This document shows, piece after piece, positions 13,463-51,631 of a stretch of 64,000 nucleotides of DNA. Both the position numbers and the translations under genes were made by a program. Source of the stretch: a virus (lineage: Duplodnaviria; Caudoviricetes); the IMG/VR virus record IMGVR_UViG_3300033518_000398, positions 14,764-78,763 of that record. One strand, 5' to 3'. A model generated the notes under the pieces. That model ran no database searches. It worked only from the letters and a program-made list of their open reading frames with translations, and was not told where the DNA came from. Positions within the stretch are counted from its first letter, which is position 1. The number at the start of each line of letters is the position of its first letter.

Positions 13463-15859
13463 TTATTTACCAACAGTTCCACCAAATTGTGTTTTACCTT
13501 GAGTTCCACCACCAGCAAAAGGACTTTTTATTGCATTATTTTTTATTGATTTAGGTGCGAATTGAATTCCATTTTTACCCACTCTCAATGTACCACCACC
13601 TTCTTCAACAAATTGTTTCAGCATTTCATATCTTTGTTGAATATTTGTTTCTTTTGCTGCATTAGCGATTGCACCCATTTGTGGGTTAATTAATATGTCT
13701 CGAAATGCTTTATAAAATAAACGATTTACTTCTTTTGGATTATTTGGGTCAAGTTTTGCAAACTTTTCCTTCATACTCCAGCCAAAAATTTCGTTTACTT
13801 TTTCTTCATTAATTATTTTTTTTACTGCAACTGACTCATATAATTTTAATTGTTTGTCAATTGCTGAGTCAAGTTTTTTAATCGCTTCTGATTTTTTACC
13901 TTCAGCTAATATTGGTTTTCCTATACCAACCTTTTCTTCAAGACGTGCACGAATATATTTTCTAAGTTTCTGTTCGCTTTCACTCATTGTGACATTAACA
14001 CTACCTTTAGTTACTTCAACAGTTGTGGTTGCAGCACCATCAGGTTTAGTTACTCCACCACCCAATGATTGAGCAGCAGGTGCAAAACTAATTTCTTCTG
14101 CGCCACTTTCTGTATCGTCACCAACTTCAACTTCTTCATCTTCTTCGGTTAATGGTGCTTCTACTTCAGTTTCATCACTTTCTGGTTCAATTGGAGGTTG
14201 TGTTTCAAGACTTGCTGGGTCGATTGGTGCATTTGTTGCATTTACTCCACCGAAAAGTTCATTAAGTTTAGCAATATTGTCTTCATCACTACTTTCATTC
14301 ATACCAGTAACAATCGGACTAAGCTTTTCAGCATATTCTTCATGTCCATAATCACCTTTTAATTGATTTAGAATTTCTGGATTAACTACTTTAATAACTA
14401 AAGCAACGTTTTCCATATCACCATCGTTCATACCATCATTATGTGCATTTGCATATCCACTAACTAAACTACTAACTTCTTCTTCACCACATTCCATAAG
14501 TGCTTCTGCACTATTATAACCACGTGATTCAGCAAATTGTGCAAAACCGCCACATTCAGCACACTGACTTTCACCAATTGCCGTTTCTTCACCACCTTTT
14601 GGTTTACCTGTGAAAAAATATACATCATCAATAGAGAAATGGTCTGGAAATGCTTTAGCAAGTTTCATTTTATTACTAGCATCTGCTTTCAAAAACAATT
14701 GAACTAAGCCAGTAGTAAACGAACCTTCACCTTGACGTTCACCATCATACCACTGCATAAACAATGACTTTCTACCACCTTCAACACCTTCGGCAGCCAT
14801 CTGCATATCAGATTTATTGGTATCCATTTTAATTGTTTTGGGTTCAATACCTGCAGCAGTTTCACTATCTTCAACGCTTTGTCCCAAATCTGCAATATCT
14901 TCGGGTGAAACAATTTTCGTGATTTTTTCTGCAATTTCTTTTCTATCTTCAATATCAAGTTCAGGAAGTTTATCCTTAAACGCTTGAATGAATGATTTAA
15001 GATATGATTCAGTTTGTGATGGTTCTAATTCAGTTTTTCTAATAGTATTTGTTATTTTACCAATTTGTTTTTCAAGTTCTCTTGTTGTTTCTGTTGCAGG
15101 GTCTTCAACCGCAACTTCTTCACCATCTTCTTCGGGCATTTCTTCTTCACCCTCTGGTGCTTCTTCACCATCTTCTTCATCACCTAATGATGCTTCTAAA
15201 TCAGCAGCAGCGTCATCTCCACCTTCTGGTGATTCTTCACCATCTTCTTCACCGCCTAATGATGCTTCTAAATCAGCAGCAGCGTCATCTCCACCTTCTG
15301 GTGCTGGTTCTTCTGCTGGCATTTCTTCACCACCTTCTGGTGCAGCATCTACTGGTTCTGATTCAAGACCAGCTTTCATTTCTTCACCACTTGGTTCTTG
15401 TGATGGCATTTCTTTAGCTGCAGTAGCAGCATCTAAATCACCTAACATGCTTTCAGCACTACCAATTTCTTGAGCAGCCTTATCTTCATTTAAGTTTATT
15501 TTTTTCTTACTACCATTTGGATTTACTTTTGTTACAACCGCTTCATTAATGGTTTTTAACAACATATTTCTGTTTTTATCTGCTTCAGCCAATTTACTGA
15601 ATTGATAATCAGTTATATTACCCAATCCACCAATATATGCGAAATCAGATGAATCTGGGTCAGATTTAAGACCACCTTTTTTAATGTAATAGTGGTGGTT
15701 TTCTTTAATGATACCATAAGCAACACCATCTGCTGCTCTCTTATAGTCAATTAAAGTACCCAATGTACGATTTTTTGATTCCTTAATAGAAACTTTATCA
15801 ACTTGTGCTAAGTTTTTTAGTCTTTGGAAATAAGCTTCTTGTGATGTATGTTTTGCCAT
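13463..15859 (-). CDS. Very acidic putative prohead core/scaffold or internal head protein
   Basis: 798 aa, Glu/Asp-rich, many (L/I)xE motifs typical of gp21-type protease substrates; late motif at about 15901. Confidence 0.7.
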   Translation of the reverse strand: MAKHTSQEAYFQRLKNLAQVDKVSIKESKNRTLGTLIDYKRAADGVAYGIIKENHHYYIKKGGLKSDPDSSDFAYIGGLGNITDYQFSKLAEADKNRNMLLKTINEAVVTKVNPNGSKKKINLNEDKAAQEIGSAESMLGDLDAATAAKEMPSQEPSGEEMKAGLESEPVDAAPEGGEEMPAEEPAPEGGDDAAADLEASLGGEEDGEESPEGGDDAAADLEASLGDEEDGEEAPEGEEEMPEEDGEEVAVEDPATETTRELEKQIGKITNTIRKTELEPSQTESYLKSFIQAFKDKLPELDIEDRKEIAEKITKIVSPEDIADLGQSVEDSETAAGIEPKTIKMDTNKSDMQMAAEGVEGGRKSLFMQWYDGERQGEGSFTTGLVQLFLKADASNKMKLAKAFPDHFSIDDVYFFTGKPKGGEETAIGESQCAECGGFAQFAESRGYNSAEALMECGEEEVSSLVSGYANAHNDGMNDGDMENVALVIKVVNPEILNQLKGDYGHEEYAEKLSPIVTGMNESSDEDNIAKLNELFGGVNATNAPIDPASLETQPPIEPESDETEVEAPLTEEDEEVEVGDDTESGAEEISFAPAAQSLGGGVTKPDGAATTTVEVTKGSVNVTMSESEQKLRKYIRARLEEKVGIGKPILAEGKKSEAIKKLDSAIDKQLKLYESVAVKKIINEEKVNEIFGWSMKEKFAKLDPNNPKEVNRLFYKAFRDILINPQMGAIANAAKETNIQQRYEMLKQFVEEGGGTLRVGKNGIQFAPKSIKNNAIKSPFAGGGTQGKTQFGGTVGK
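15183..15303 (-). repeat. 72-nt-period direct repeat (PEGGDDAAADLEASLG x2)
   Basis: cctaatgatgcttctaaatcagcagcagcgtcatctccaccttctggtg at 15183 and 15255. Confidence 0.85.
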
Positions 15860-23480: not shown

Positions 23481-23555
23481 ATGAAAAATTTAGTGAACAT
23501 AGTGCCCCAACCGCAACAACATCCACAGGATGGTGAATGGGGAAAGTACGCTTAA
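23481..23555 (+). CDS. Attenuator leader peptide 1: MKNLVNIVPQPQQHPQDGEWGKYA
   Basis: Hand-translated 24-aa ORF; PQPQQHPQ run; GAATGGGG 23535-23542 complementary to the terminator 5' arm. Confidence 0.8.
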   Translation: MKNLVNIVPQPQQHPQDGEWGKYA

Positions 23556-23585
23556 TTTTTCAATTGAAGTTTTAAGTTAAACATG

Positions 23586-23614
23586 ACCCCATTCTGAAAA
23601 GAGTGGGGTTTTTT
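23586..23614 (+). terminator. Attenuator terminator 1
   Basis: ACCCCATTC-TGAAAA-GAGTGGGGT followed by a U tract. Confidence 0.85.
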
Positions 23615-26532: not shown

Positions 26533-26622
26533 ATGAGAAATTTACTCGACATATTAATGGTAGCTTTGGAAGCAGTCCTATTATGGGCAGCAGATGAGGA
26601 TAAAATACGTTCAGTCGGGTAA
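26533..26622 (+). CDS. Attenuator leader peptide 2: MRNLLDILMVALEAVLLWAADEDKIRSVG
   Basis: 29-aa ORF after TATCTTTG promoter (26500); AGTCGGGT 26613-26620 complementary to the terminator 5' arm. Confidence 0.75.
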   Translation: MRNLLDILMVALEAVLLWAADEDKIRSVG

Positions 26623-26653
26623 TACAATATTACACACTCCTTTCTTTAATAAG

Positions 26654-26688
26654 AAAAACCCGACTCTCCACAATAAGTCGGGTTTTTT
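26654..26688 (+). terminator. Attenuator terminator 2
   Basis: AAAAACCCGACT...AGTCGGGTTTTTT. Confidence 0.85.
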
Positions 26689-26702
26689 GTTTTAGTGTGT
26701 AG

Positions 26703-26713
26703 GTTCTTTGACA
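26703..26713 (+). promoter_or_regulatory. boxA-like element
   Basis: GTTCTTTGACA; similar sites at 31619, 39194, 47286 and 48108, all in tRNA-bearing transcripts. Confidence 0.55.
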
Positions 26714-26725
26714 TGTTGGAAATTT

Positions 26726-30175: not shown

Positions 30176-30540
30176 GGGGGCGACTTGGATTTGATTAGAT
30201 GTCAGATTGGTAAAGTAAGCAAGTCTTAGTTGAATCAGACTAAGTAAAAAAGGTTCAAAGCAGAAATGCAAACAATTTTTCAGAGGACATGATGTCCTTC
30301 TCAACTTCTGTAACAAGAGGTATCACCGTTTTCGAGAGTGCTGAACTCGAAATGGCTGCTTGAGAACAATAAACGGCAAAAACTTCTGGTGAAGTAAGTT
30401 ATGAATAAGTTAGTAACGAATCCCGAAGCGAAACTAATATTAAACTGTTATATTTTGCTGATTTAGAAAAATCGGATAAACTTGTAGAAAACCTATTAAT
30501 CACATTTAAGACGAGGGTTCGAATCCCTCCGCTTCCACCA
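30176..30540 (+). ncRNA. ssrA: tmRNA
   Basis: Acceptor GGGGGCG/CGCTTCC-A-CCA with G3:U; T arm GAGGG-TTCGAAT-CCCTC; tag ORF 30268-30363 ending MAA-stop. Confidence 0.9.
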
Positions 30541-36331: not shown

Positions 36332-37420
36332 ATGGAAGAAATACTTATTAAAGTTGACTGGAAAGTATTACAAAATTATATTGATAATAATTTAATTATT
36401 GCTAATAAACATCCAGAATATAATCTTTGGATACTTAATTATAGCTCTAAAACACAATCAAAAAATTTTTGGGATTTATATACAATATCATGTAGAGGAT
36501 TGATTGTTGATGAAAATGGCGTTGTTGTTGGTAGATGTATGAGAAAATTTAAGAACTATGAACAGCATGACCCATCAGAAATTGATATGTCGAAGAAATT
36601 CGAAATTTTTGAAAAGATGGACGGCTCATTAATTATCTTATTTTATTATGAACCACGTATGAGGTGGATTGTAGCTTCAAGAGGTTCATTTATCTCAGAA
36701 CAGTCACTCCATGCTGAGAAGATGATTGATGCAAACGTGTATAAGTATTTAAACACAAAGTCAACATATTTGTTTGAAGTAATTTATCCTGAAAATCGTA
36801 TAGTTGTTGATTATGGTGATAGAAATGAACTTGTATTGCTTGGAAATATAATCACAGCAACTGGTGAAGAATTACCATACGATAAGTTGGTTAGTATATA
36901 TTCTAAGTTTTTTACTGTTGTCGAAAGGTTTGAAATTGAAAACATAAACTTTTTAAAGAAATTGAAGGAACTTGAAGAAGATAATAAAGAGGGTTTTGTT
37001 GTACGTTTCGAAAATGGTTTCAGAGTAAAAGTTAAGTTCGAAGAATATATCAGATTACACGGTATTTTAACAAATGTATCAAACTTAACTGTTTGGGAAC
37101 ACTTGAAGAATAACTATAATTTTGATGAACTTCTCGACAGAGTTCCAGACGAATTTTATGACTGGTTAATGAGAACAGTAAAAACATTACAGTCAGAATA
37201 TAATGAAATCGAAAGAGTGGCATTATTAGAATTCGTGAAAATATATCACATTAATGGAATTACTGACCGTAAAGATTTTGCAACAGAAGTAATAAAAACT
37301 GAACATAGTTCAATATTGTTTAAATTGTATGATAAAAGGTCATATGGTGAAATTATCTGGAAGCAAATCAGACCTGTATACAGCAAGCCATTTAAGGATG
37401 GCTTCGAGTATATTGCATAA
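36332..37420 (+). CDS. RNA ligase (T4 Rnl1-like)
   Basis: CRGLI, KFKNY, EKMDGS (adenylation motif I), LFEVI, EGFVV, KVK. Confidence 0.9.
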   Translation: MEEILIKVDWKVLQNYIDNNLIIANKHPEYNLWILNYSSKTQSKNFWDLYTISCRGLIVDENGVVVGRCMRKFKNYEQHDPSEIDMSKKFEIFEKMDGSLIILFYYEPRMRWIVASRGSFISEQSLHAEKMIDANVYKYLNTKSTYLFEVIYPENRIVVDYGDRNELVLLGNIITATGEELPYDKLVSIYSKFFTVVERFEIENINFLKKLKELEEDNKEGFVVRFENGFRVKVKFEEYIRLHGILTNVSNLTVWEHLKNNYNFDELLDRVPDEFYDWLMRTVKTLQSEYNEIERVALLEFVKIYHINGITDRKDFATEVIKTEHSSILFKLYDKRSYGEIIWKQIRPVYSKPFKDGFEYIA

Positions 37421-38141: not shown

Positions 38142-38954
38142 ATGAAAAAATGGAAATTATTTAATTGGTTCATAAAACCAAAAAAAGGAGAGGCACGAAT
38201 CAAGTTTGGTTGGAAAAGAGATTTACCTGACCATAGAGATTTTAAATTTAAAATAACAATACCAGTTGAATTACCAACTAAAGTAGATATGAGGGATTTA
38301 TGTCCACAAGTTTATAATCAGGGTCAACTTGGAAGCTGTACCGCAAATGCATTAGGTGCTGCGTTTCAGTTTGAACAAATGAAACAAAATAAACCAAATT
38401 GGATTCCTTCAAGACTTTTCATTTATTATAATGAAAGAGCAATGGAGGGTAACATTAATGAAGACTCTGGTGCAATGATTCGTACTGGTATTAAGACAAT
38501 GGTAAAAGATGGTGTTTGTCCTGAAACCATGTGGAAATATATTGAACATAAGTTTAAAGTGAAACCAAATTCATTATGTTATGATGAGGCATTAAATAGT
38601 CAGATATTGGAATATCAGAGAATCACACCACATACATTATACGAAGTGAAATATGCGTTGACTCAAGGTCATCCAGTTGTATTTGGTTTCATGATTTATG
38701 AATCCATGATGACTGATGATGTTACCAGAACAGGACATGTACCAGTTCCAAGGTCAAATGAAAAACCAATTGGTGGACATGCAGTAATGGCAGTTGGTTA
38801 TGATGACAGCAAAGAATGTCTTATCGTTCGTAATAGTTGGGGTACTAATTGGGGTATTAATGGTTATTTTTATTTACCATATTGGTATGTTTCAACACCC
38901 AATGCATCAGCCGATTACTGGACAATTAAATTGGTTGAATCAGAGAATAAATAA
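38142..38954 (+). CDS. Papain-like (C1A) cysteine protease
   Basis: QGQLGSC, GHAVMAVGY and IVRNSWG catalytic motifs. Confidence 0.9.
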   Translation: MKKWKLFNWFIKPKKGEARIKFGWKRDLPDHRDFKFKITIPVELPTKVDMRDLCPQVYNQGQLGSCTANALGAAFQFEQMKQNKPNWIPSRLFIYYNERAMEGNINEDSGAMIRTGIKTMVKDGVCPETMWKYIEHKFKVKPNSLCYDEALNSQILEYQRITPHTLYEVKYALTQGHPVVFGFMIYESMMTDDVTRTGHVPVPRSNEKPIGGHAVMAVGYDDSKECLIVRNSWGTNWGINGYFYLPYWYVSTPNASADYWTIKLVESENK

Positions 38955-39040
38955 AATAGTTTAAAAATAATTACACTTTTATTTGGAAATCTCGTATTTA
39001 TATCTTTACTTTGTATTCAGAATTTAAATATAAAAACGCA

Positions 39041-39130
39041 ATGAGAACATTTGGAACATATTATCTTTATAAATCTTATAAGAAAACTCTTATGAGAATC
39101 GGGATTTTTATGTCCAAAACGCAAAGATAA
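39041..39130 (+). CDS. Attenuator leader peptide 3: MRTFGTYYLYKSYKKTLMRIGIFMSKTQR
   Basis: 29 aa with YYLYKSYKK run; GAATCGGG 39096-39103 complementary to the terminator 5' arm. Confidence 0.8.
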   Translation: MRTFGTYYLYKSYKKTLMRIGIFMSKTQR

Positions 39131-39156
39131 GCAATGATATTTGTGTATTGAAACAG

Positions 39157-39185
39157 AAACCCGATTCGTAAGATTCGGGTTTTTT
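39157..39185 (+). terminator. Attenuator terminator 3
   Basis: AAACCCGATTC-GTAA-GATTCGGGTTTTTT. Confidence 0.85.
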
Positions 39186-39225
39186 GTTATATTATTCTTT
39201 GAAGATTTGAAAGCGAAATGAAATT

Positions 39226-39314
39226 GGGAGTACGGCAACGATGGTGGTGTTGCGCTAAACTGTAAATTTAGTCCCTTCGGGTAAACATTGGAGGTTCGAA
39301 TCCTTCTGCTCTCA
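39226..39314 (+). tRNA. tRNA-Tyr(GUA)
   Basis: CTAAA-CTGTAAA-TTTAG; long variable arm. Confidence 0.9.
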
Positions 39315-39319
39315 CAAAT

Positions 39320-39393
39320 TCCCTCGTAGTTTAATTGGTAAAACCCCATACTTTTAATATGCGAAAGTCCCAGTTCGAGTCTGGGCGAGGGAA
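39320..39393 (+). tRNA. tRNA-Lys(UUU)
   Basis: Loop CTTTTAA; acceptor TCCCTCG/CGAGGGA. Confidence 0.85.
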
Positions 39394-39517
39394 CTCTGTG
39401 ATTTTCGAGTCTTAATCATGTGTTAAATTTATTTAGTTTATAAAAAAATCCTTGCATTTTTAAATAAAATGTATTATATTTGTTGAAAATAACTTTAAGC
39501 TAAAGTAATTTGAAAAA

Positions 39518-40282
39518 ATGGCTAATAAAAAGAAAAAGGTAACAACTACTATTACAACAACAGTTACGGAGGAAATTGTAAATATTCCTTCAAACGAAAA
39601 AACTCACATCATCTGTATTTTAGACCAAAGTGGTTCGATGGCAAGTATTATGTCGGACAGTATTGGTGGTTTTAATGCATTCTTAAAAAAACAAAAAGAA
39701 TTACCTGATGACGCAACAATTACTGTTGCATTATTTGATGATAAATATAAACTGCTTTATGATAATGTTGATATTAAAAAAGCGGAAGAACTTACAAGTA
39801 CTGTTTGGTATCCACAGGGAATGACAGCACTTTATGATGCAATTGGTAAAACAATTAATGTCGAAAAACGAAATTTTGAAAAACTTGGCAATGAAGCACC
39901 TGCAAAGGTATTGTGTGTTATTGTAACAGATGGAGAAGAAAATAGTAGTAAAGAATATAAACTTGAAGATATCAAGAAACTTATTAAGAAATGTGAAAAG
40001 GATGACTGGAACTTCATGTATTTAGCTGCTAATCAAGATGCTTTTGCTGTTGGAACAAGTTTTGGTGTAAGTGCTGGAAATACATATTCATATACAGCAA
40101 CTGCTGATGGTGTATTTAATATGTCCAACACACTAAATAATGCGAGTGTAAGCTATAGGTCAATGAACACTACATCTGCAGATTTCAAGGAAAAGTCGAA
40201 ATCATTGGTTGATGATGTTGATGATAAACTTGATGAAAATGGTATTATAACCACAAGTAATTCATTTACTGTTTCTAACTAA
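39518..40282 (+). CDS. vWA domain protein
   Basis: ILDQSGSM (DxSxS), TALYDAIG, VTDGEEN MIDAS motifs. Confidence 0.9.
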   Translation: MANKKKKVTTTITTTVTEEIVNIPSNEKTHIICILDQSGSMASIMSDSIGGFNAFLKKQKELPDDATITVALFDDKYKLLYDNVDIKKAEELTSTVWYPQGMTALYDAIGKTINVEKRNFEKLGNEAPAKVLCVIVTDGEENSSKEYKLEDIKKLIKKCEKDDWNFMYLAANQDAFAVGTSFGVSAGNTYSYTATADGVFNMSNTLNNASVSYRSMNTTSADFKEKSKSLVDDVDDKLDENGIITTSNSFTVSN

Positions 40283-42903: not shown

Positions 42904-45900
42904 ATGGCACAAAAAACCCTAAAAACCTACACAAAACAAGAAGTTGAAAAAGCAACATTAAACTATTTTAAAGGAGATGGATTAGCTACCGATGTATGGA
43001 TGAAAAAATATTGTTTAAAGGATGAAAACAATTATTACGAACTCACTCCTGATGATATGCATAAAAGAATTGCAAGTGAACTTGCAAGAATAGAAGCTAA
43101 ATATCCAAACCCACTTACCGAAGAACAAATTTTTGAAACATTGAAAAATTTTAAGAGAATTGTACCACAAGGAAGTCCGATGTCAGGAATTGGAAATAAT
43201 TTTCAGGTAGTATCTATTGGTAATTGTTTTGTTATTGGAAATTATGGTGATGGTGATTCTTATGGTGGAATATTGAATATCGACCAAGAACAGGTTCAAT
43301 TAATGAAACGCAGGGGTGGCGTTGGACATGATTTATCACATATTCGTCCAGCAGGTAGTCCAGTAAAAAATAGTGCAATTAGTAGTACAGGTATCGTACC
43401 CTTTATGGAAAGATATTCAAACAGTACCAGAGAGGTTGCACAAGACGGTAGACGTGGAGCACTTATGCTCAGTGTGTCGATTAAACATCCAGATTCTGAA
43501 GCATTTATTGATGCCAAACTTGAATCTGGTAAGGTAACAGGTGCTAATGTTTCAGTTAAAATCACCGATGAATTCATGAAAGCAGTAATGAATAATAATA
43601 TGTTTCAACAGCAATATCCAATAGATAGTGATAACCCTAAATATGTTAAAAGCATTGACGCTCAAAAACTTTGGAAGAAAATTGTATATAATGCATGGAA
43701 ATCAGCCGAACCCGGTATCTTGTTTTGGGATAAAATAATTGGTGAATCAATACCTTCTTGTTATGGTAAGGAATGGATTGAAAGAAGTACTAATCCATGT
43801 GTTAGTGAAGATACATTAGTATTAACACATCATGGTTATTATGAAATTAGTGAGTTAGTAGATAAGCCAACATTTGTTTGGAATGGTATGAATTTCTCCG
43901 AAGTTACGCCAACAATTACTGGTTATAATCAGAAAATGTTAAAAGTTATCTTTAGTGATGGTTCTGAATTGAAATGTACACCATATCATGGATTTTATAC
44001 TTGGGAAGGTTTTGAACGTGATGGAAAATCAATAAAAAAGGAAGCTAAAGATTTAATCGTTGGAGATAAACTCGAAAAACATGAATTTCCAACACTTTTT
44101 GACCATCAAGTTTTTCATGTCGATAAAACTTTTTATACGTTAGGATTTTTTGCTGGTGATGGTTTTGTGAAAAGAGATAGCACAGCACATGTATCGTTAT
44201 ATGGTGCAAAGAAAAATCTTCTTGATAAATTAGATGTAATTGGTAATGTTTCTGAAGATATTGAAAATGATAAATTAACAATACGTGTTGACTTACCTGT
44301 AGATTATTTTGGAATTGATTTACATGAACTAAAAAAATATGTTCCTAAACGTCATGATAATAATTCATCGGCAATGATGTCATGGTTGGCAGGTATTATA
44401 GATTCTGATGGATGTCGTAATTCAGAAGAAGGTTCAATTTCAATATCATCAATAGATAAACAATTCTTAATGGATATTAAGTTACATCTTTTGAACGTAA
44501 TGGGTGTCAGTGGTAGTGTAATTGATGAAAAAGAAGGTGGGTTACATGAAATTAAAGGCGTTAAATATGATTGTAATAAATCATATCGTTTAATAATTAG
44601 TGCATATAATGTTAAAAAACTTTATGATTTAGGTTTACGTACCTATCGTGTTAAAATCGATGATGTTAATCCGAACCGTGATGCAAGTAGATTCATTACT
44701 GTGAAATCGATTGAGGAAATAGAAGATGCTGAAAAGGTTTATTGTTTTACTGAACCAGAAAGAGGTCGTGGATGTTTCAACGGTATTGTTACTGCGAATT
44801 GTGGCGAGTTACCACTCCCGCCATATGATAGCTGTAGATTACTTGCAATTAATTTATTTGGTTATGTGAGAAATCCGTTTACCAAAGAAGCATATTTTGA
44901 TATGGAAAGTTTTAAGGGCGATGTGATTATATCTATGCGATATATGGATGATATTATCGATTTAGAACTCGAAAAAATCGATAAAATATTAGAAAAAATC
45001 GAATCTGACCCAGAACCTGAAAATTTAAAAAGTGTAGAAAAAGAATTGTGGAATAATATTAGAAGAAAAGCTGAGTTAGGTCGTAGAACTGGACTTGGTG
45101 TTACAGGTGAAGGTGATATGATTGCTGCAATGGGACTACGTTACGGTACTGATGATGCCACCGAATTTAGTGAAGAAGTTCATAAAACATTGAAATTAGA
45201 AGCATATCGCTCAAGTGTTATTATGGCTAAAGAACGTGGTGCATTTCCGATATACGATTGGGATAGAGAAAAATTCAATCCATTTATTCGTAGAATAATG
45301 GATGAGGATACTGAATTATATAATGAAATGGTAACTTTTGGTCGTAGAAACATTGCATTACTTACAATCGCACCGACTGGAACAGTTAGTATTATGACAC
45401 AAACTACATCTGGAATTGAACCAGCATTCTTACCAGTATATATGCGTAGGCGTAAGATTAATCCGCAGGAAAAGGACGTTCGAATTGATTTTATTGATGA
45501 AGAAGGTGTTGCTTGGATGGAATATCCAGTATTTCACCATAAATTTGAAATGTGGTTAGGAATCAATGGCTACGATGTTGAAGTGGTGAAAACCATGAAT
45601 AAGGAACAACTGGATGAAATTGTTAAAAAATCCCCATTTTATAAAGCAACTTCCAATGACGTTGATTGGGTAAAAAAGGTTGAAATGCAAGGCAGGGTTC
45701 AAAGGCATGTTGACCATTCCATAAGCACAACTGTGAACGTCCCTAATGATACAACAGAGGAACTTGTTGGTAAAGTATATGAAACGGGTTGGCGTAGTGG
45801 TTGTAAGGGTATTACTATTTATCGTGATGGTAGTCGTAGTGGTGTGTTGGTTAGTCAAAAAGAAGAAAAGAAAGTAGAAGAACTCCAAGACGTGCATGCA

Positions 45901-46473
45901 CCAAAACGTCCCAAAAGATTAAAAGGTGAAATACATAGGTTTCAGAACAATCTGGAAAAATGGATAGCTGTTGTTGGTATGAAAGATGGTAGACCATATG
46001 AAATCTTTACTGGTGTTAATGCTAATGGTCTTAGTAATTTACCAACAAACGTTAAAGACTGTGAAGTCGTTAAAAATATTATCGAAGTCGAAGTTCTTGA
46101 TGATAACGATAAACCAATTAAAATAAAGAAAAAAAGATATGATATTGAATATGTTGATGTTGATGGCATTAAACAAGTACACACTGGTTTAAATCATGCA
46201 TTCAATCCAGAGTTCTGGAACTATGCCAAGTTAATCTCTGGTATAATGAGACATGGTATGCCAGTTCTTAAACAATACGAATTAATTGAGTCATTGAATT
46301 TTAAAGAAGACTATATTAATACGTGGAAAAATGGTGTGGCACGTGTAATTAAAAAATATATTAAGGATGGTGTTAAAAGCAAAGGAACGTGTCCTGAATG
46401 CGGTGGTACTGATTTTATTTTTCAAGAAGGATGTGTTAAATGTAGTAGTTGTTCTTGGACGAAATGTGGATAA
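42904..46473 (+). CDS. nrdJ: Class II (B12-dependent) ribonucleotide reductase with intein
   Basis: PQGSPM, NPC..E active site, TIAPTGT, C-terminal TSCPD-like region and Zn ribbon; Bacteroidota-like N-terminus. Confidence 0.9.
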   Translation: MAQKTLKTYTKQEVEKATLNYFKGDGLATDVWMKKYCLKDENNYYELTPDDMHKRIASELARIEAKYPNPLTEEQIFETLKNFKRIVPQGSPMSGIGNNFQVVSIGNCFVIGNYGDGDSYGGILNIDQEQVQLMKRRGGVGHDLSHIRPAGSPVKNSAISSTGIVPFMERYSNSTREVAQDGRRGALMLSVSIKHPDSEAFIDAKLESGKVTGANVSVKITDEFMKAVMNNNMFQQQYPIDSDNPKYVKSIDAQKLWKKIVYNAWKSAEPGILFWDKIIGESIPSCYGKEWIERSTNPCVSEDTLVLTHHGYYEISELVDKPTFVWNGMNFSEVTPTITGYNQKMLKVIFSDGSELKCTPYHGFYTWEGFERDGKSIKKEAKDLIVGDKLEKHEFPTLFDHQVFHVDKTFYTLGFFAGDGFVKRDSTAHVSLYGAKKNLLDKLDVIGNVSEDIENDKLTIRVDLPVDYFGIDLHELKKYVPKRHDNNSSAMMSWLAGIIDSDGCRNSEEGSISISSIDKQFLMDIKLHLLNVMGVSGSVIDEKEGGLHEIKGVKYDCNKSYRLIISAYNVKKLYDLGLRTYRVKIDDVNPNRDASRFITVKSIEEIEDAEKVYCFTEPERGRGCFNGIVTANCGELPLPPYDSCRLLAINLFGYVRNPFTKEAYFDMESFKGDVIISMRYMDDIIDLELEKIDKILEKIESDPEPENLKSVEKELWNNIRRKAELGRRTGLGVTGEGDMIAAMGLRYGTDDATEFSEEVHKTLKLEAYRSSVIMAKERGAFPIYDWDREKFNPFIRRIMDEDTELYNEMVTFGRRNIALLTIAPTGTVSIMTQTTSGIEPAFLPVYMRRRKINPQEKDVRIDFIDEEGVAWMEYPVFHHKFEMWLGINGYDVEVVKTMNKEQLDEIVKKSPFYKATSNDVDWVKKVEMQGRVQRHVDHSISTTVNVPNDTTEELVGKVYETGWRSGCKGITIYRDGSRSGVLVSQKEEKKVEELQDVHAPKRPKRLKGEIHRFQNNLEKWIAVVGMKDGRPYEIFTGVNANGLSNLPTNVKDCEVVKNIIEVEVLDDNDKPIKIKKKRYDIEYVDVDGIKQVHTGLNHAFNPEFWNYAKLISGIMRHGMPVLKQYELIESLNFKEDYINTWKNGVARVIKKYIKDGVKSKGTCPECGGTDFIFQEGCVKCSSCSWTKCG
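43798..44799 (+). mobile_element. 334-aa intein with LAGLIDADG endonuclease at the NrdJ active site
   Basis: NP/CVSEDT...GIVTAN/CGE; TLGFFAGDG and WLAGIIDSDG motifs. Confidence 0.9.
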
Positions 46474-47102: not shown

Positions 47103-47231
47103 ATGAAAGCACAGGTATCCAATATTAATATTTCGTCAACGATTAATAGTCGTAATGGAAATGGTATATTCTGTTCAAGTTTTACAGGCAGAAATATAGC
47201 AGATACGGGTTCTGGTTTTCATGAGTCATAA
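47103..47231 (+). CDS. Attenuator leader peptide 4: MKAQVSNINISSTINSRNGNGIFCSSFTGRNIADTGSGFHES
   Basis: 42 aa after TACCTTTG (47043); 8 Ser, 6 Asn, 5 Ile, 5 Gly, 1 Cys; CGGGTTCT 47206-47213 complementary to the terminator 5' arm. Confidence 0.8.
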   Translation: MKAQVSNINISSTINSRNGNGIFCSSFTGRNIADTGSGFHES

Positions 47232-47255
47232 ATAACTCATAAAAATATTAAAAAG

Positions 47256-47285
47256 AACCCGAATTCACAAGATTCGGGTTTTTTT
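47256..47285 (+). terminator. Attenuator terminator 4
   Basis: AACCCGAATT-CACAA-GATTCGGGTT followed by a U tract. Confidence 0.85.
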
Positions 47286-47299
47286 GTTCTTTGAAATAT

Positions 47300-47983
47300 T
47301 TATAATAAAATTTTGGTGCGGATGATTTCATCGATAATTGTGAAATATGTGTATGCCCTATCTATTTTAAAATTAATGAATTTTGATGTGTCTATAATAC
47401 ATAACTCAATTCCCTGTTCTAAACAGGCTTGAAATTTACGGTTATCGTTATTTTGAATCTGGTTTAGTTTATCTTCACCATAAATTGGTTCATAATGAAA
47501 AACACCATTAAGTTCGAATGCAAGTTTAAGTTCTGGAATATAAATATCAAGTTCAGAATTTATAGTAGTTTTATCATTGAAGAAAAAGTCAATGTTTGGA
47601 TATTTTTTTATTAATTCAATGGCAATCCATTTTTCAAGTTTTGAAATTCGAGTACCTTTAGTCTTGTGTGTGTTATTATATGTAATAGAACAAGACCTTG
47701 AGCAGAAATTTTTTGTGGATTTAGAATTTTTTATTTCATAATTCGTTTTAATAATTTCTTTTCCGCAATTACCACACATCACTATGTGTCTTTTAGTTAA
47801 AATTTGATATTGATGTGAACAATTTTGTGAACAAAATTTTGCCGAATTTCTTTTACAATTAATTGCATACATAATTTGTCTTTTTGTTGTATGAAAAGGG
47901 TTACCACAAAATTCGCATTTACATTCAAATAAATCTGTTACTTTTCCAGATATTAATTTTTCATTTTCAAATAATGGTATCAT
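47300..47983 (-). CDS. Homing endonuclease with Zn fingers and PD-(D/E)xK domain, antisense to the tRNA cluster
   Basis: CxxC repeats; ELDIYIPELKLAFELNGVFHY. Confidence 0.85.
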   Translation of the reverse strand: MIPLFENEKLISGKVTDLFECKCEFCGNPFHTTKRQIMYAINCKRNSAKFCSQNCSHQYQILTKRHIVMCGNCGKEIIKTNYEIKNSKSTKNFCSRSCSITYNNTHKTKGTRISKLEKWIAIELIKKYPNIDFFFNDKTTINSELDIYIPELKLAFELNGVFHYEPIYGEDKLNQIQNNDNRKFQACLEQGIELCIIDTSKFINFKIDRAYTYFTIIDEIIRTKILL

Positions 47984-48130
47984 ACGTAAATTTTATTATA
48001 AATACTTTAAAAATTGAATTTCTATTCAGTTTTTAAACTCAAAATAAAATATAACTCTTACTGGTTATAAACATCAAATATAGCCTCTACAGGTTATACC
48101 GTAAGACGTTCATTGACATGCTGGTTTTAT

Positions 48131-48437: not shown

Positions 48438-48526
48438 GAATGATTAGAATTTCGTAGCATAGTGGTAATGCTGCCCGCAAGAAAGGGTGAAGATTGGTTC
48501 GAGTCCAATCAAAATTTTAATCATTC
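48438..48526 (+). ncRNA. tRNA-like element with about 17-bp extended acceptor stem and atypical anticodon loop
   Basis: D and T arms intact; loop GCAAGAAA; GAATGATTAGAATTTCG pairs with CAAAATTTTAATCATTC (one mismatch). Confidence 0.5.
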
Positions 48527-51374: not shown

Positions 51375-51599
51375 GTGATGCGAATAACCAAAGAAAAAAC
51401 AGCAACTTGGTTTCTATTCTTAGGAACTTTTTTCAATCCTTTGGGATACGATGCTCTTCTGAAGTGGCTAATGGATACAACAGGCAGTTATTGGTTTTCA
51501 ATTTCAATTTTCTACCTATTATCAGTATCATGCTTTATCTCATACTTCTTATTGGCTAAAGTAAATCCACTCAAAATCTTTACAAGAAAAAGGAATTAA
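51375..51599 (+). CDS. Small membrane protein
   Basis: Two hydrophobic segments. Confidence 0.65.
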   Translation: MMRITKEKTATWFLFLGTFFNPLGYDALLKWLMDTTGSYWFSISIFYLLSVSCFISYFLLAKVNPLKIFTRKRN

Positions 51600-51631
51600 T
51601 GTTGGATATTAATTCCTTTTTTCTTACATTT

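Follow-up and report, generated by a model that had tools for sequence, protein, structure and literature searches.

A probable ribosome-mediated attenuator ahead of the tRNA-Tyr and tRNA-Lys genes of a phage

The virus record IMGVR_UViG_3300033518_000398 of IMG/VR (Duplodnaviria; Caudoviricetes), from a giant uncultured phage, carries a transfer RNA (tRNA) gene pair, tRNA-Tyr and tRNA-Lys, that is preceded by a short open reading frame (ORF) rich in Tyr and Lys codons and by an intrinsic terminator. We analyzed positions 14,764 to 78,763 of this 78.8-kilobase (kb) contig, a 64-kb stretch with 31% guanine plus cytosine (GC) that is called the window here; positions below are those of the window unless another record is named. 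The Tyr/Lys module is most likely a ribosome-mediated (leader-peptide) transcription attenuator, which would exert negative feedback on the supply of tRNA-Tyr and tRNA-Lys. A preliminary description of the same DNA had proposed an attenuator at this site, and the proposal is supported in that all features testable in the sequence are present and conserved, the regulation itself being deduced from them. Five of the seven features listed for attenuators are found: a short ORF after a promoter, cognate codons in this ORF, a terminator, an antiterminator, and an anti-antiterminator that carries the codons.

Organization of the Tyr/Lys module

The leader ORF (39041-39130; + strand, as are all parts of the module) has 29 codons, from the ATG at 39041 to the TAA at 39128-39130. 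Codons 7-15 (39059-39085) encode YYLYKSYKK and thus contain four Tyr and three Lys in nine codons. The Tyr codons, at 39059, 39062, 39068 and 39077, are all TAT; the Lys codons of the run lie at 39071 (AAA), 39080 (AAG) and 39083 (AAA), and a fourth Lys is codon 26. The antiterminator segment (region 2), GAATCGGG (39096-39103), spans codons 19-21 and is complementary without mismatch to CCCGATTC (39160-39167) in the 5' arm of the terminator; the pairing can be extended to about 39108 via a bulge. The terminator (39157-39185) is completed by a GTAA loop, a 3' arm and six T. The same antiterminator octamer is paired with the Tyr/Lys run (39065-39083) in a predicted anti-antiterminator hairpin (39050-39118). 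Folding energies are -19.3 kcal/mol for this hairpin (1:2), -14.4 kcal/mol for the extended antiterminator duplex (2:3) and -12.9 kcal/mol for the terminator (3:4). The codon counts and the complementarity of the two octamers had been pointed out in the preliminary description; the former are read directly in the sequence and the latter is perfect. Its estimate that the antiterminator lies about 25 nucleotides (nt) before the stop is also accurate, as the octamer ends 24 nt upstream of the stop codon.

The terminator is followed by a spacer of 40 nt (39186-39225) and by two tRNA genes: tRNA-Tyr (anticodon GUA; 39226-39315), which has a long variable arm, and tRNA-Lys (anticodon UUU; 39320-39394). 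Both were identified by ARAGORN and by Rfam (37.2 bits for tRNA-Tyr with RF00005; 56.5 bits for tRNA-Lys), and the two methods agree that the cluster holds these tRNAs only, as had been stated. The next gene (39518-40282) carries its own -7 promoter box, so that the Tyr/Lys unit is self-contained. On the minus strand, an ORF of 110 codons (39017-39349) overlaps both tRNA genes and was taken as spurious.

Folding also predicts a small hairpin around the leader stop codon (39119-39146), visible in the alignment of 19 homologues described below (alignment A2), which may be a pause or spacer element. Just 3' of the leader stop, GCAATGA occurs in approximately 12 of 19 Tyr/Lys modules (window 39131-39151; A2 columns 105-135). 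A mini-ORF of 3-5 codons starts within it, in the same sequence context as the leader itself (GCAATGA), which makes re-initiation possible. The spacer contains a TTCTTTGA-like motif that is common to the sister modules. A motif of about GTTCTTTGACATGTTGG is found between terminators and the first tRNA at 26700-26722, 39196-39215, 48108-48125 and 47286-47296 of the window and in the related loci L008, L009 and L010; it is degenerate in the Tyr/Lys unit, and may be a processing or pause signal.

Codon content and pairing compared with chance

As the base composition favours TAT and AAA, the window itself was chosen as the null for the codon run. It has 299 ATG-initiated ORFs of 20-45 codons, counted over both strands, and only the leader reaches seven or more Tyr or Lys in any nine codons. 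When all six frames are considered, such a density is reached in 6 of 74,324 stop-free windows of nine codons. The pairing between leader and terminator arm was likewise compared with 300 dinucleotide shuffles: at -14.2 kcal/mol it exceeds the shuffled value of -6.4 +/- 1.9 kcal/mol (p=0.003). Pairing beyond that of shuffled sequences is also seen in most of 38 modules drawn from all four leader families, which are described below.

Conservation of the leader and of the RNA structure

Homologous modules were collected in two ways. With the gene downstream of the tRNAs as bait, four IMG/VR contigs and 80 metagenome loci were obtained, in which tRNAs were located with ARAGORN, then a hairpin with a T-run at most 130 nt before a tRNA, and then an ORF ending just upstream. 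This synteny pipeline yielded 19 distinct Tyr/Lys leaders, all of them ahead of Lys and/or Tyr tRNAs. Since the pipeline is restricted to terminators that precede tRNAs, an unbiased scan of IMG/VR was added that used the leader motif alone and required no tRNA. The scan returned 37 contigs; Lys/Tyr tRNAs come next in 34 of the 35 that extend far enough downstream, and the tRNA blocks of these contigs hold almost nothing besides Lys and Tyr tRNAs. In all, dozens of related contigs of huge phages have the module ahead of Lys/Tyr tRNAs. A blastn search with a 3-kb region against cultured phages gave similarity to tRNA-Tyr and to two huge-phage records, and the leader was unmatched. In the related loci L026, L035, L042 and L059-L061 a different G+C-rich hairpin with a T-run stands directly before the Lys/Tyr tRNAs, and the leader motif is located farther upstream.

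The leader frame is open in 49 distinct homologues, in which insertions and deletions are multiples of three. These homologues are not assembly duplicates, since their identity varies and the 49 coding sequences are distinct. One column of the leader is Lys (32 sequences) or Tyr (17 sequences) and never another residue in 49/49 distinct coding sequences, and the two Tyr columns that precede it are Tyr in 42/49 and 49/49. Columns 13-17 of the table of 49 leaders are set by the search motif and were excluded as evidence. Divergent leaders (L011, L078 and L072) have another sequence, another order of residues and another terminator, and are still rich in Tyr and Lys and still match their own terminator arm.

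The three helices are conserved as well. For A2, the alignment of the 19 homologues from the synteny pipeline, the consensus structure given by RNAalifold is the terminator, with four pairs changed on both sides. For the antiterminator helix (39096-39103 with 39160-39167) 96.7% of the cells are paired, compared with 3-60% in slid controls, and four of its eight pairs are changed on both sides. These double changes come from the divergent lineage L011/L078, in which the terminator stem differs; the variant L072 uses a shifted antiterminator pairing. The anti-antiterminator hairpin is paired in 78% of the cells, compared with 40-51% in slid controls, and eight of its pairs are double-changed. 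Within this hairpin the helix is kept where the peptide is altered, from Gly to Arg or Ser opposite synonymous TCC/TCT, and from Leu to Phe opposite AAG/AAA. AAG/AAA swaps at a Lys codon are accompanied by CTT/TTT on the opposite strand, so that the helix persists and the residue stays Lys even as the partner residue varies. The pattern suggests that selection acts on the RNA fold and on the identity of Lys, and not on the peptide as such.

Promoter and likely requirement for read-through

Between an upstream peptidase gene and the leader ORF lies a host-type (Bacteroidota-like) promoter (38982-39013), composed of TTTG (38982-38985), the block CGTATTTAT (38993-39001) and a -7 box TTACTTTG (39006-39013; consensus TAnnTTTG). 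All four leaders of the window are preceded by TTTG, approximately 19-20 nt and then TAnnTTTG, which is the pattern of Bacteroidota (Bacteroides) sigma-A promoters. Of 48 distinct regions upstream of homologous leaders, 46 keep a -7-like box at a distance of 22-40 nt from the ATG. Across the same 48 promoters the CGTATTTAT block between the -33 and -7 boxes is almost invariant, and could be bound by a regulator or form a promoter element specific to the phage.

In 22 related contigs the gap between the T-run and the first tRNA is 8-29 nt. This leaves no room for a tRNA promoter, and read-through of the terminator would therefore be needed for expression of these tRNAs. In the window, no -7 promoter box was found in the spacer (39186-39225).

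Sister modules and a four-block organization

The window contains 25 tRNA genes and one transfer-messenger RNA (tmRNA) gene according to ARAGORN, all on the + strand, and three further modules of comparable layout, likewise on the + strand. The leader of module 1 (23481-23614) contains eight Pro/Gln/His codons in a row; the module also comprises an antiterminator octamer and a terminator, and it stands ahead of tRNAs in the order Pro-His-Pro-His and of a tRNA-Gln. In module 2 (26533-26688) the leader is rich in Leu, Val, Ala, Asp, Glu and Trp, the antiterminator overlaps the stop codon, and the terminator is followed by tRNA-Asp. Module 4 (47103-47285) consists of a leader of 42 codons, rich in Ser, Asn, Ile, Gly, Thr, Phe, Cys and Arg, and a terminator; between the module and a Cys-Ile-Ser-Gly-Ile-Asn-Asn tRNA block lies a minus-strand gene (47300-47983). 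This gene (227 codons) is Cys-rich, has a zf-FCS match only and is possibly a homing-endonuclease-like insert; in relatives the terminator abuts the tRNAs.

For each of the four amino-acid sets, the leader concerned alone ranks first among the 299 small ORFs of the window, and each leader has a segment of 7-8 nt that is complementary to its own, different terminator arm.

The same partition is seen in a complete relative from IMG/VR of 362,763 base pairs (bp) with 55 tRNAs, which has exactly four terminator-led tRNA blocks: Pro/His/Gln, Asp/Glu/Val/Leu/Ala/Trp, Lys/Tyr, and Thr/Cys/Asn/Ile/Ser/Phe/Gly/Arg. When the leaders of four genomes were scored against these block sets, taken as given, they were enriched 1.7-5.1x in the amino acids of their own block and mostly depleted in those of the others. 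For the four leaders of the window the binomial tails are 4.5e-4, 1.2e-4, 2.4e-2 (Tyr/Lys) and 1.3e-6; the tail of the Tyr/Lys leader is the weakest because its signal is concentrated in nine codons. The match between leader codons and downstream tRNAs, which the preliminary description had noted for Tyr and Lys, thus recurs in the three sister modules and in the complete relative. A record of this length, JBAZIW010000001.1 (L135, 362,763 bp), is filed as a metagenome-assembled genome (MAG) of Candidatus Paceibacterota and carries the leader motif; it is probably the genome of the complete phage relative.

Some further tRNA features of these phages were observed. A membrane-like ORF of 73 codons (window 51378-51631) has AGA-AAA-AGG-AAT-stop as its last codons, which fall within the 5' arm of a terminator; tRNA-Arg(UCU) and tRNA-Arg(CCU) follow this terminator directly. 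This may be a simpler codon-matched arrangement. The tmRNA and a tRNA-like gene with an oversized anticodon loop are encoded at 30176-30540 and 48447-48518 of the window, and relatives carry a tRNA with the anticodon CUA that would read TAG (L010, position 16740; L134, position 12314).

Discussion

In the mechanism that we propose for the Tyr/Lys module, transcription would start from the host-type promoter, which lies approximately 25 nt upstream of the leader ATG. As long as charged tRNA-Tyr and tRNA-Lys are abundant, the ribosome would pass the Tyr/Lys run, after which hairpin 39050-39118 would re-form and sequester the antiterminator octamer; the terminator could then form and transcription would end before the tRNAs. 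Termination would likewise be expected if the leader is untranslated. If either tRNA is scarce, the ribosome would stall on codons 7-15 and mask the 5' strand of the hairpin, and the freed octamer would pair with the terminator 5' arm once that arm emerges. This would block the terminator and allow RNA polymerase to read into tRNA-Tyr and tRNA-Lys. The new tRNAs would relieve the stall, so that the capacity to decode Tyr and Lys codons would be under negative feedback. Stalling would, we infer, decide between the helices by kinetic choice. The tRNAs might be depleted by the demand of the phage itself, with its 31% GC genome, by decay of host tRNAs, or by host anticodon nucleases.

Several points weigh against this mechanism. 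Conditional read-through is a prediction from the sequence, and the mechanism presupposes transcription-translation coupling in the host. Unlike in E. coli trpL, a ribosome terminating at the leader stop would not cover the octamer, which ends 24 nt before it; default termination must therefore rely on rapid local re-formation of the hairpin. The remark in the preliminary description that timing may differ from the other leaders is apt in this respect, as the antiterminator would not be masked by the terminating ribosome here. Equilibrium folding with ribosome masks fails to separate the two states: whichever mask is applied, the terminator is formed in the full RNA and the antiterminator in the nascent RNA. 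As equilibrium folding does not discriminate, the switch would have to be kinetic, as in classical attenuators. The antiterminator covariation derives from few lineages (L011/L078 and the shifted L072), and octamer conservation in the IMG/VR set is by construction, since the search motif includes the octamer. TAT and AAA are common codons at 31% GC, and over the whole peptide the Tyr/Lys enrichment is just 2.2x (P=0.024). Finally, the spacer of the window measures 40 nt and that of some relatives 100-300 nt, so an internal promoter is possible there.

Alternatively, the switch may be real and respond to general translation activity, such as any slowing of ribosomes or the rate of initiation on the leader, or to a bound phage or host protein or RNA, with the Tyr/Lys codons being secondary. 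The covariation of the helices is independent of codon content, the antiterminator is not masked by a terminating ribosome, and the invariant CGTATTTAT promoter block and the conserved stop-codon hairpin are without an assigned role. Such a signal nevertheless leaves unexplained why four leader families are each written in the amino acids of their own block, why divergent leaders stay rich in Tyr and Lys despite a changed order and sequence, and why one column alternates between Lys and Tyr alone in 49/49 leaders, and we consider it improbable. A similarly low, slightly smaller chance is given to the short ORF being an independent small-protein gene beside tRNAs whose expression relies on constitutive leakage through the terminator or on a promoter that escaped recognition. 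Conservation of the peptide would fit such a gene, and a promoter might find space in the 40 nt between terminator and tRNA in the window or in the 100-300 nt of some relatives. The gap of 8-29 nt between T-run and tRNA in the 22 relatives gives no promoter room, however, and a small protein would account neither for the co-variation of the octamer with the terminator arm nor for residues that change where the RNA pairing persists (Gly to Arg/Ser, Leu to Phe); four unrelated small proteins would moreover have to match their neighbouring tRNAs by accident.

The least probable alternative is a chance ORF in AT-rich intergenic DNA, beside a terminator that ends the upstream peptidase gene. At 31% GC, TAT and AAA are by composition the commonest codons, yet in the empirical null the run stands out as one of 299 small ORFs and among 6 of 74,324 codon windows. 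The open frame in 49 distinct homologues, the conserved promoter between the peptidase gene and the leader, and the covariation of the structure are not expected of a chance ORF either, and this alternative is already refuted by the conservation data.

Attenuation of the Tyr/Lys tRNAs, as favoured here, would resemble the leader-peptide attenuators of enterobacterial amino-acid operons, such as trpL, hisL, pheL, leuL, thrL and ilvL (review PMC1183508). In common with trpL-type attenuators, the module has a promoter-proximal ORF, regulatory codons in strand 1 and three overlapping helices (1:2, 2:3 and the 3:4 terminator), and a stalled ribosome should release strand 2. As in thrL and ilvL, sensing would be multivalent and would cover two amino acids. 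In contrast to trpL-type attenuators, the phage module would regulate tRNA genes and not enzymes, and the sensed quantity, Tyr/Lys decoding capacity, would be the product itself. The phage setting, the parallel use for four tRNA blocks and the antiterminator 24 nt before the stop, unmasked by a terminating ribosome, are further differences. No sequence or Rfam similarity to curated leader families (Thr_leader, Trp_leader, His_leader, Leu_leader, Bacteroid-trp and others) was found: in a cmscan search of 38900-39450 at E-values up to 10, where membership needs the gathering score, all leader-type matches are sub-threshold (Thr_leader, 16.9 bits with a cut-off of 55, E=1.4 and on the wrong strand; rimP, 16.4 bits). 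In the same search of 38900-39450 no T-box (RF00230) was detected, and only the two tRNAs pass.

In E. coli, the pheM leader attenuates the pheST operon, which encodes phenylalanyl-tRNA synthetase. The phage module shares with pheM the arrangement of a cognate-codon leader that controls a translation component for the same amino acid. The target of pheM is a synthetase gene, and this leader is a single, cellular one, whereas the phage modules would control tRNAs and form a matched set. A possible leader before the tRNA-Phe genes of E. coli was dropped from the comparison, as the intergenic DNA at pheV and pheU of MG1655 measures approximately 105 nt and holds only an ordinary promoter, with no leader ORF. 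T-box riboswitches regulate synthetase and amino-acid genes. Like the mechanism proposed here, they respond to the state of a particular tRNA by switching between terminator and antiterminator. They differ in binding uncharged tRNA via a specifier codon and a conserved bulge, with no translation involved, whereas the phage module has an ORF that would be translated.

A full-text literature search found no description of attenuator-controlled tRNA genes. Tyr/Lys attenuation would, if correct, extend trp-type attenuation to a new class of targets, in which the sensed molecule is the product. The tRNA genes of phages are commonly regarded as constitutively expressed cargo, serving to correct codon usage or to replace tRNAs lost to decay or defence. 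According to the mechanism proposed here, the phage would instead gauge decoding capacity per codon class and make each tRNA set on demand, and the leaders would give a direct readout of the tRNAs that become limiting during infection. An inducible rather than constitutive answer to tRNA-targeting defences would become testable. Leader composition also predicts the downstream tRNA content, even after gene insertion or tRNA loss, and could serve as an aid in annotation.

Defence context and host

In phage T4, Rnl1 and Pnkp repair tRNA-Lys that has been cut by PrrC. The window encodes a T4 Rnl1-like RNA ligase (36332-37420, + strand; PF09511, 1.3e-18; phrog_562, the family of T4 gp63, 4.9e-65) 1.6 kb upstream of the Tyr/Lys module, which we regard as context and not as a component of the switch. 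Of 24 related loci, 18 have a homologue of the ligase no more than 4.5 kb upstream; this synteny is suggestive at most, because gene order is conserved throughout the clade.

Several defence systems act on the same two tRNAs: the tRNA-Tyr of phage T5 counters Retron-Eco7 (PMC11555353), the T5 tRNA-Lys counters PARIS (PMC11464382), and Septu cuts tRNA-Tyr (PMC13096335). The module resembles these counter-defence tRNAs in its Tyr and Lys identities and in that its tRNAs are phage-encoded, often present in several copies and located near an Rnl1-like ligase. It differs in that those reports concern the tRNAs themselves, and none of them a switching sensor. A link between the Tyr/Lys module and anticodon nucleases is a plausible hypothesis, with the syntenic ligase as context. 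A broader proposal would be that the whole tRNA repertoire is split into four shortage-sensed blocks, with the Tyr/Lys sensor as an inducible counter-defence against anticodon nucleases and the ligase repairing cut tRNAs in parallel. Destruction of tRNA-Lys or tRNA-Tyr by PrrC, PARIS, Retron-Eco7/PtuAB or a Septu-type nuclease would then stall the leader and lead to replacement tRNAs within seconds. We put this forward tentatively, and as a whole it is rather doubtful.

The host is probably a member of the Bacteroidota, as three weak lines suggest: the promoter type is Bacteroidota-like, the best cultured relatives of the ribonucleotide reductase are found in Bacteroides phages, and a related 110-kb contig, JADLCD010000124.1 (L136), is binned in a Chitinophagaceae MAG. 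The large subunit of the ribonucleotide reductase (window 42904-46473, + strand) is split by an intein with a LAGLIDADG endonuclease domain, and its relatives from huge-phage records align with it in two or three segments.

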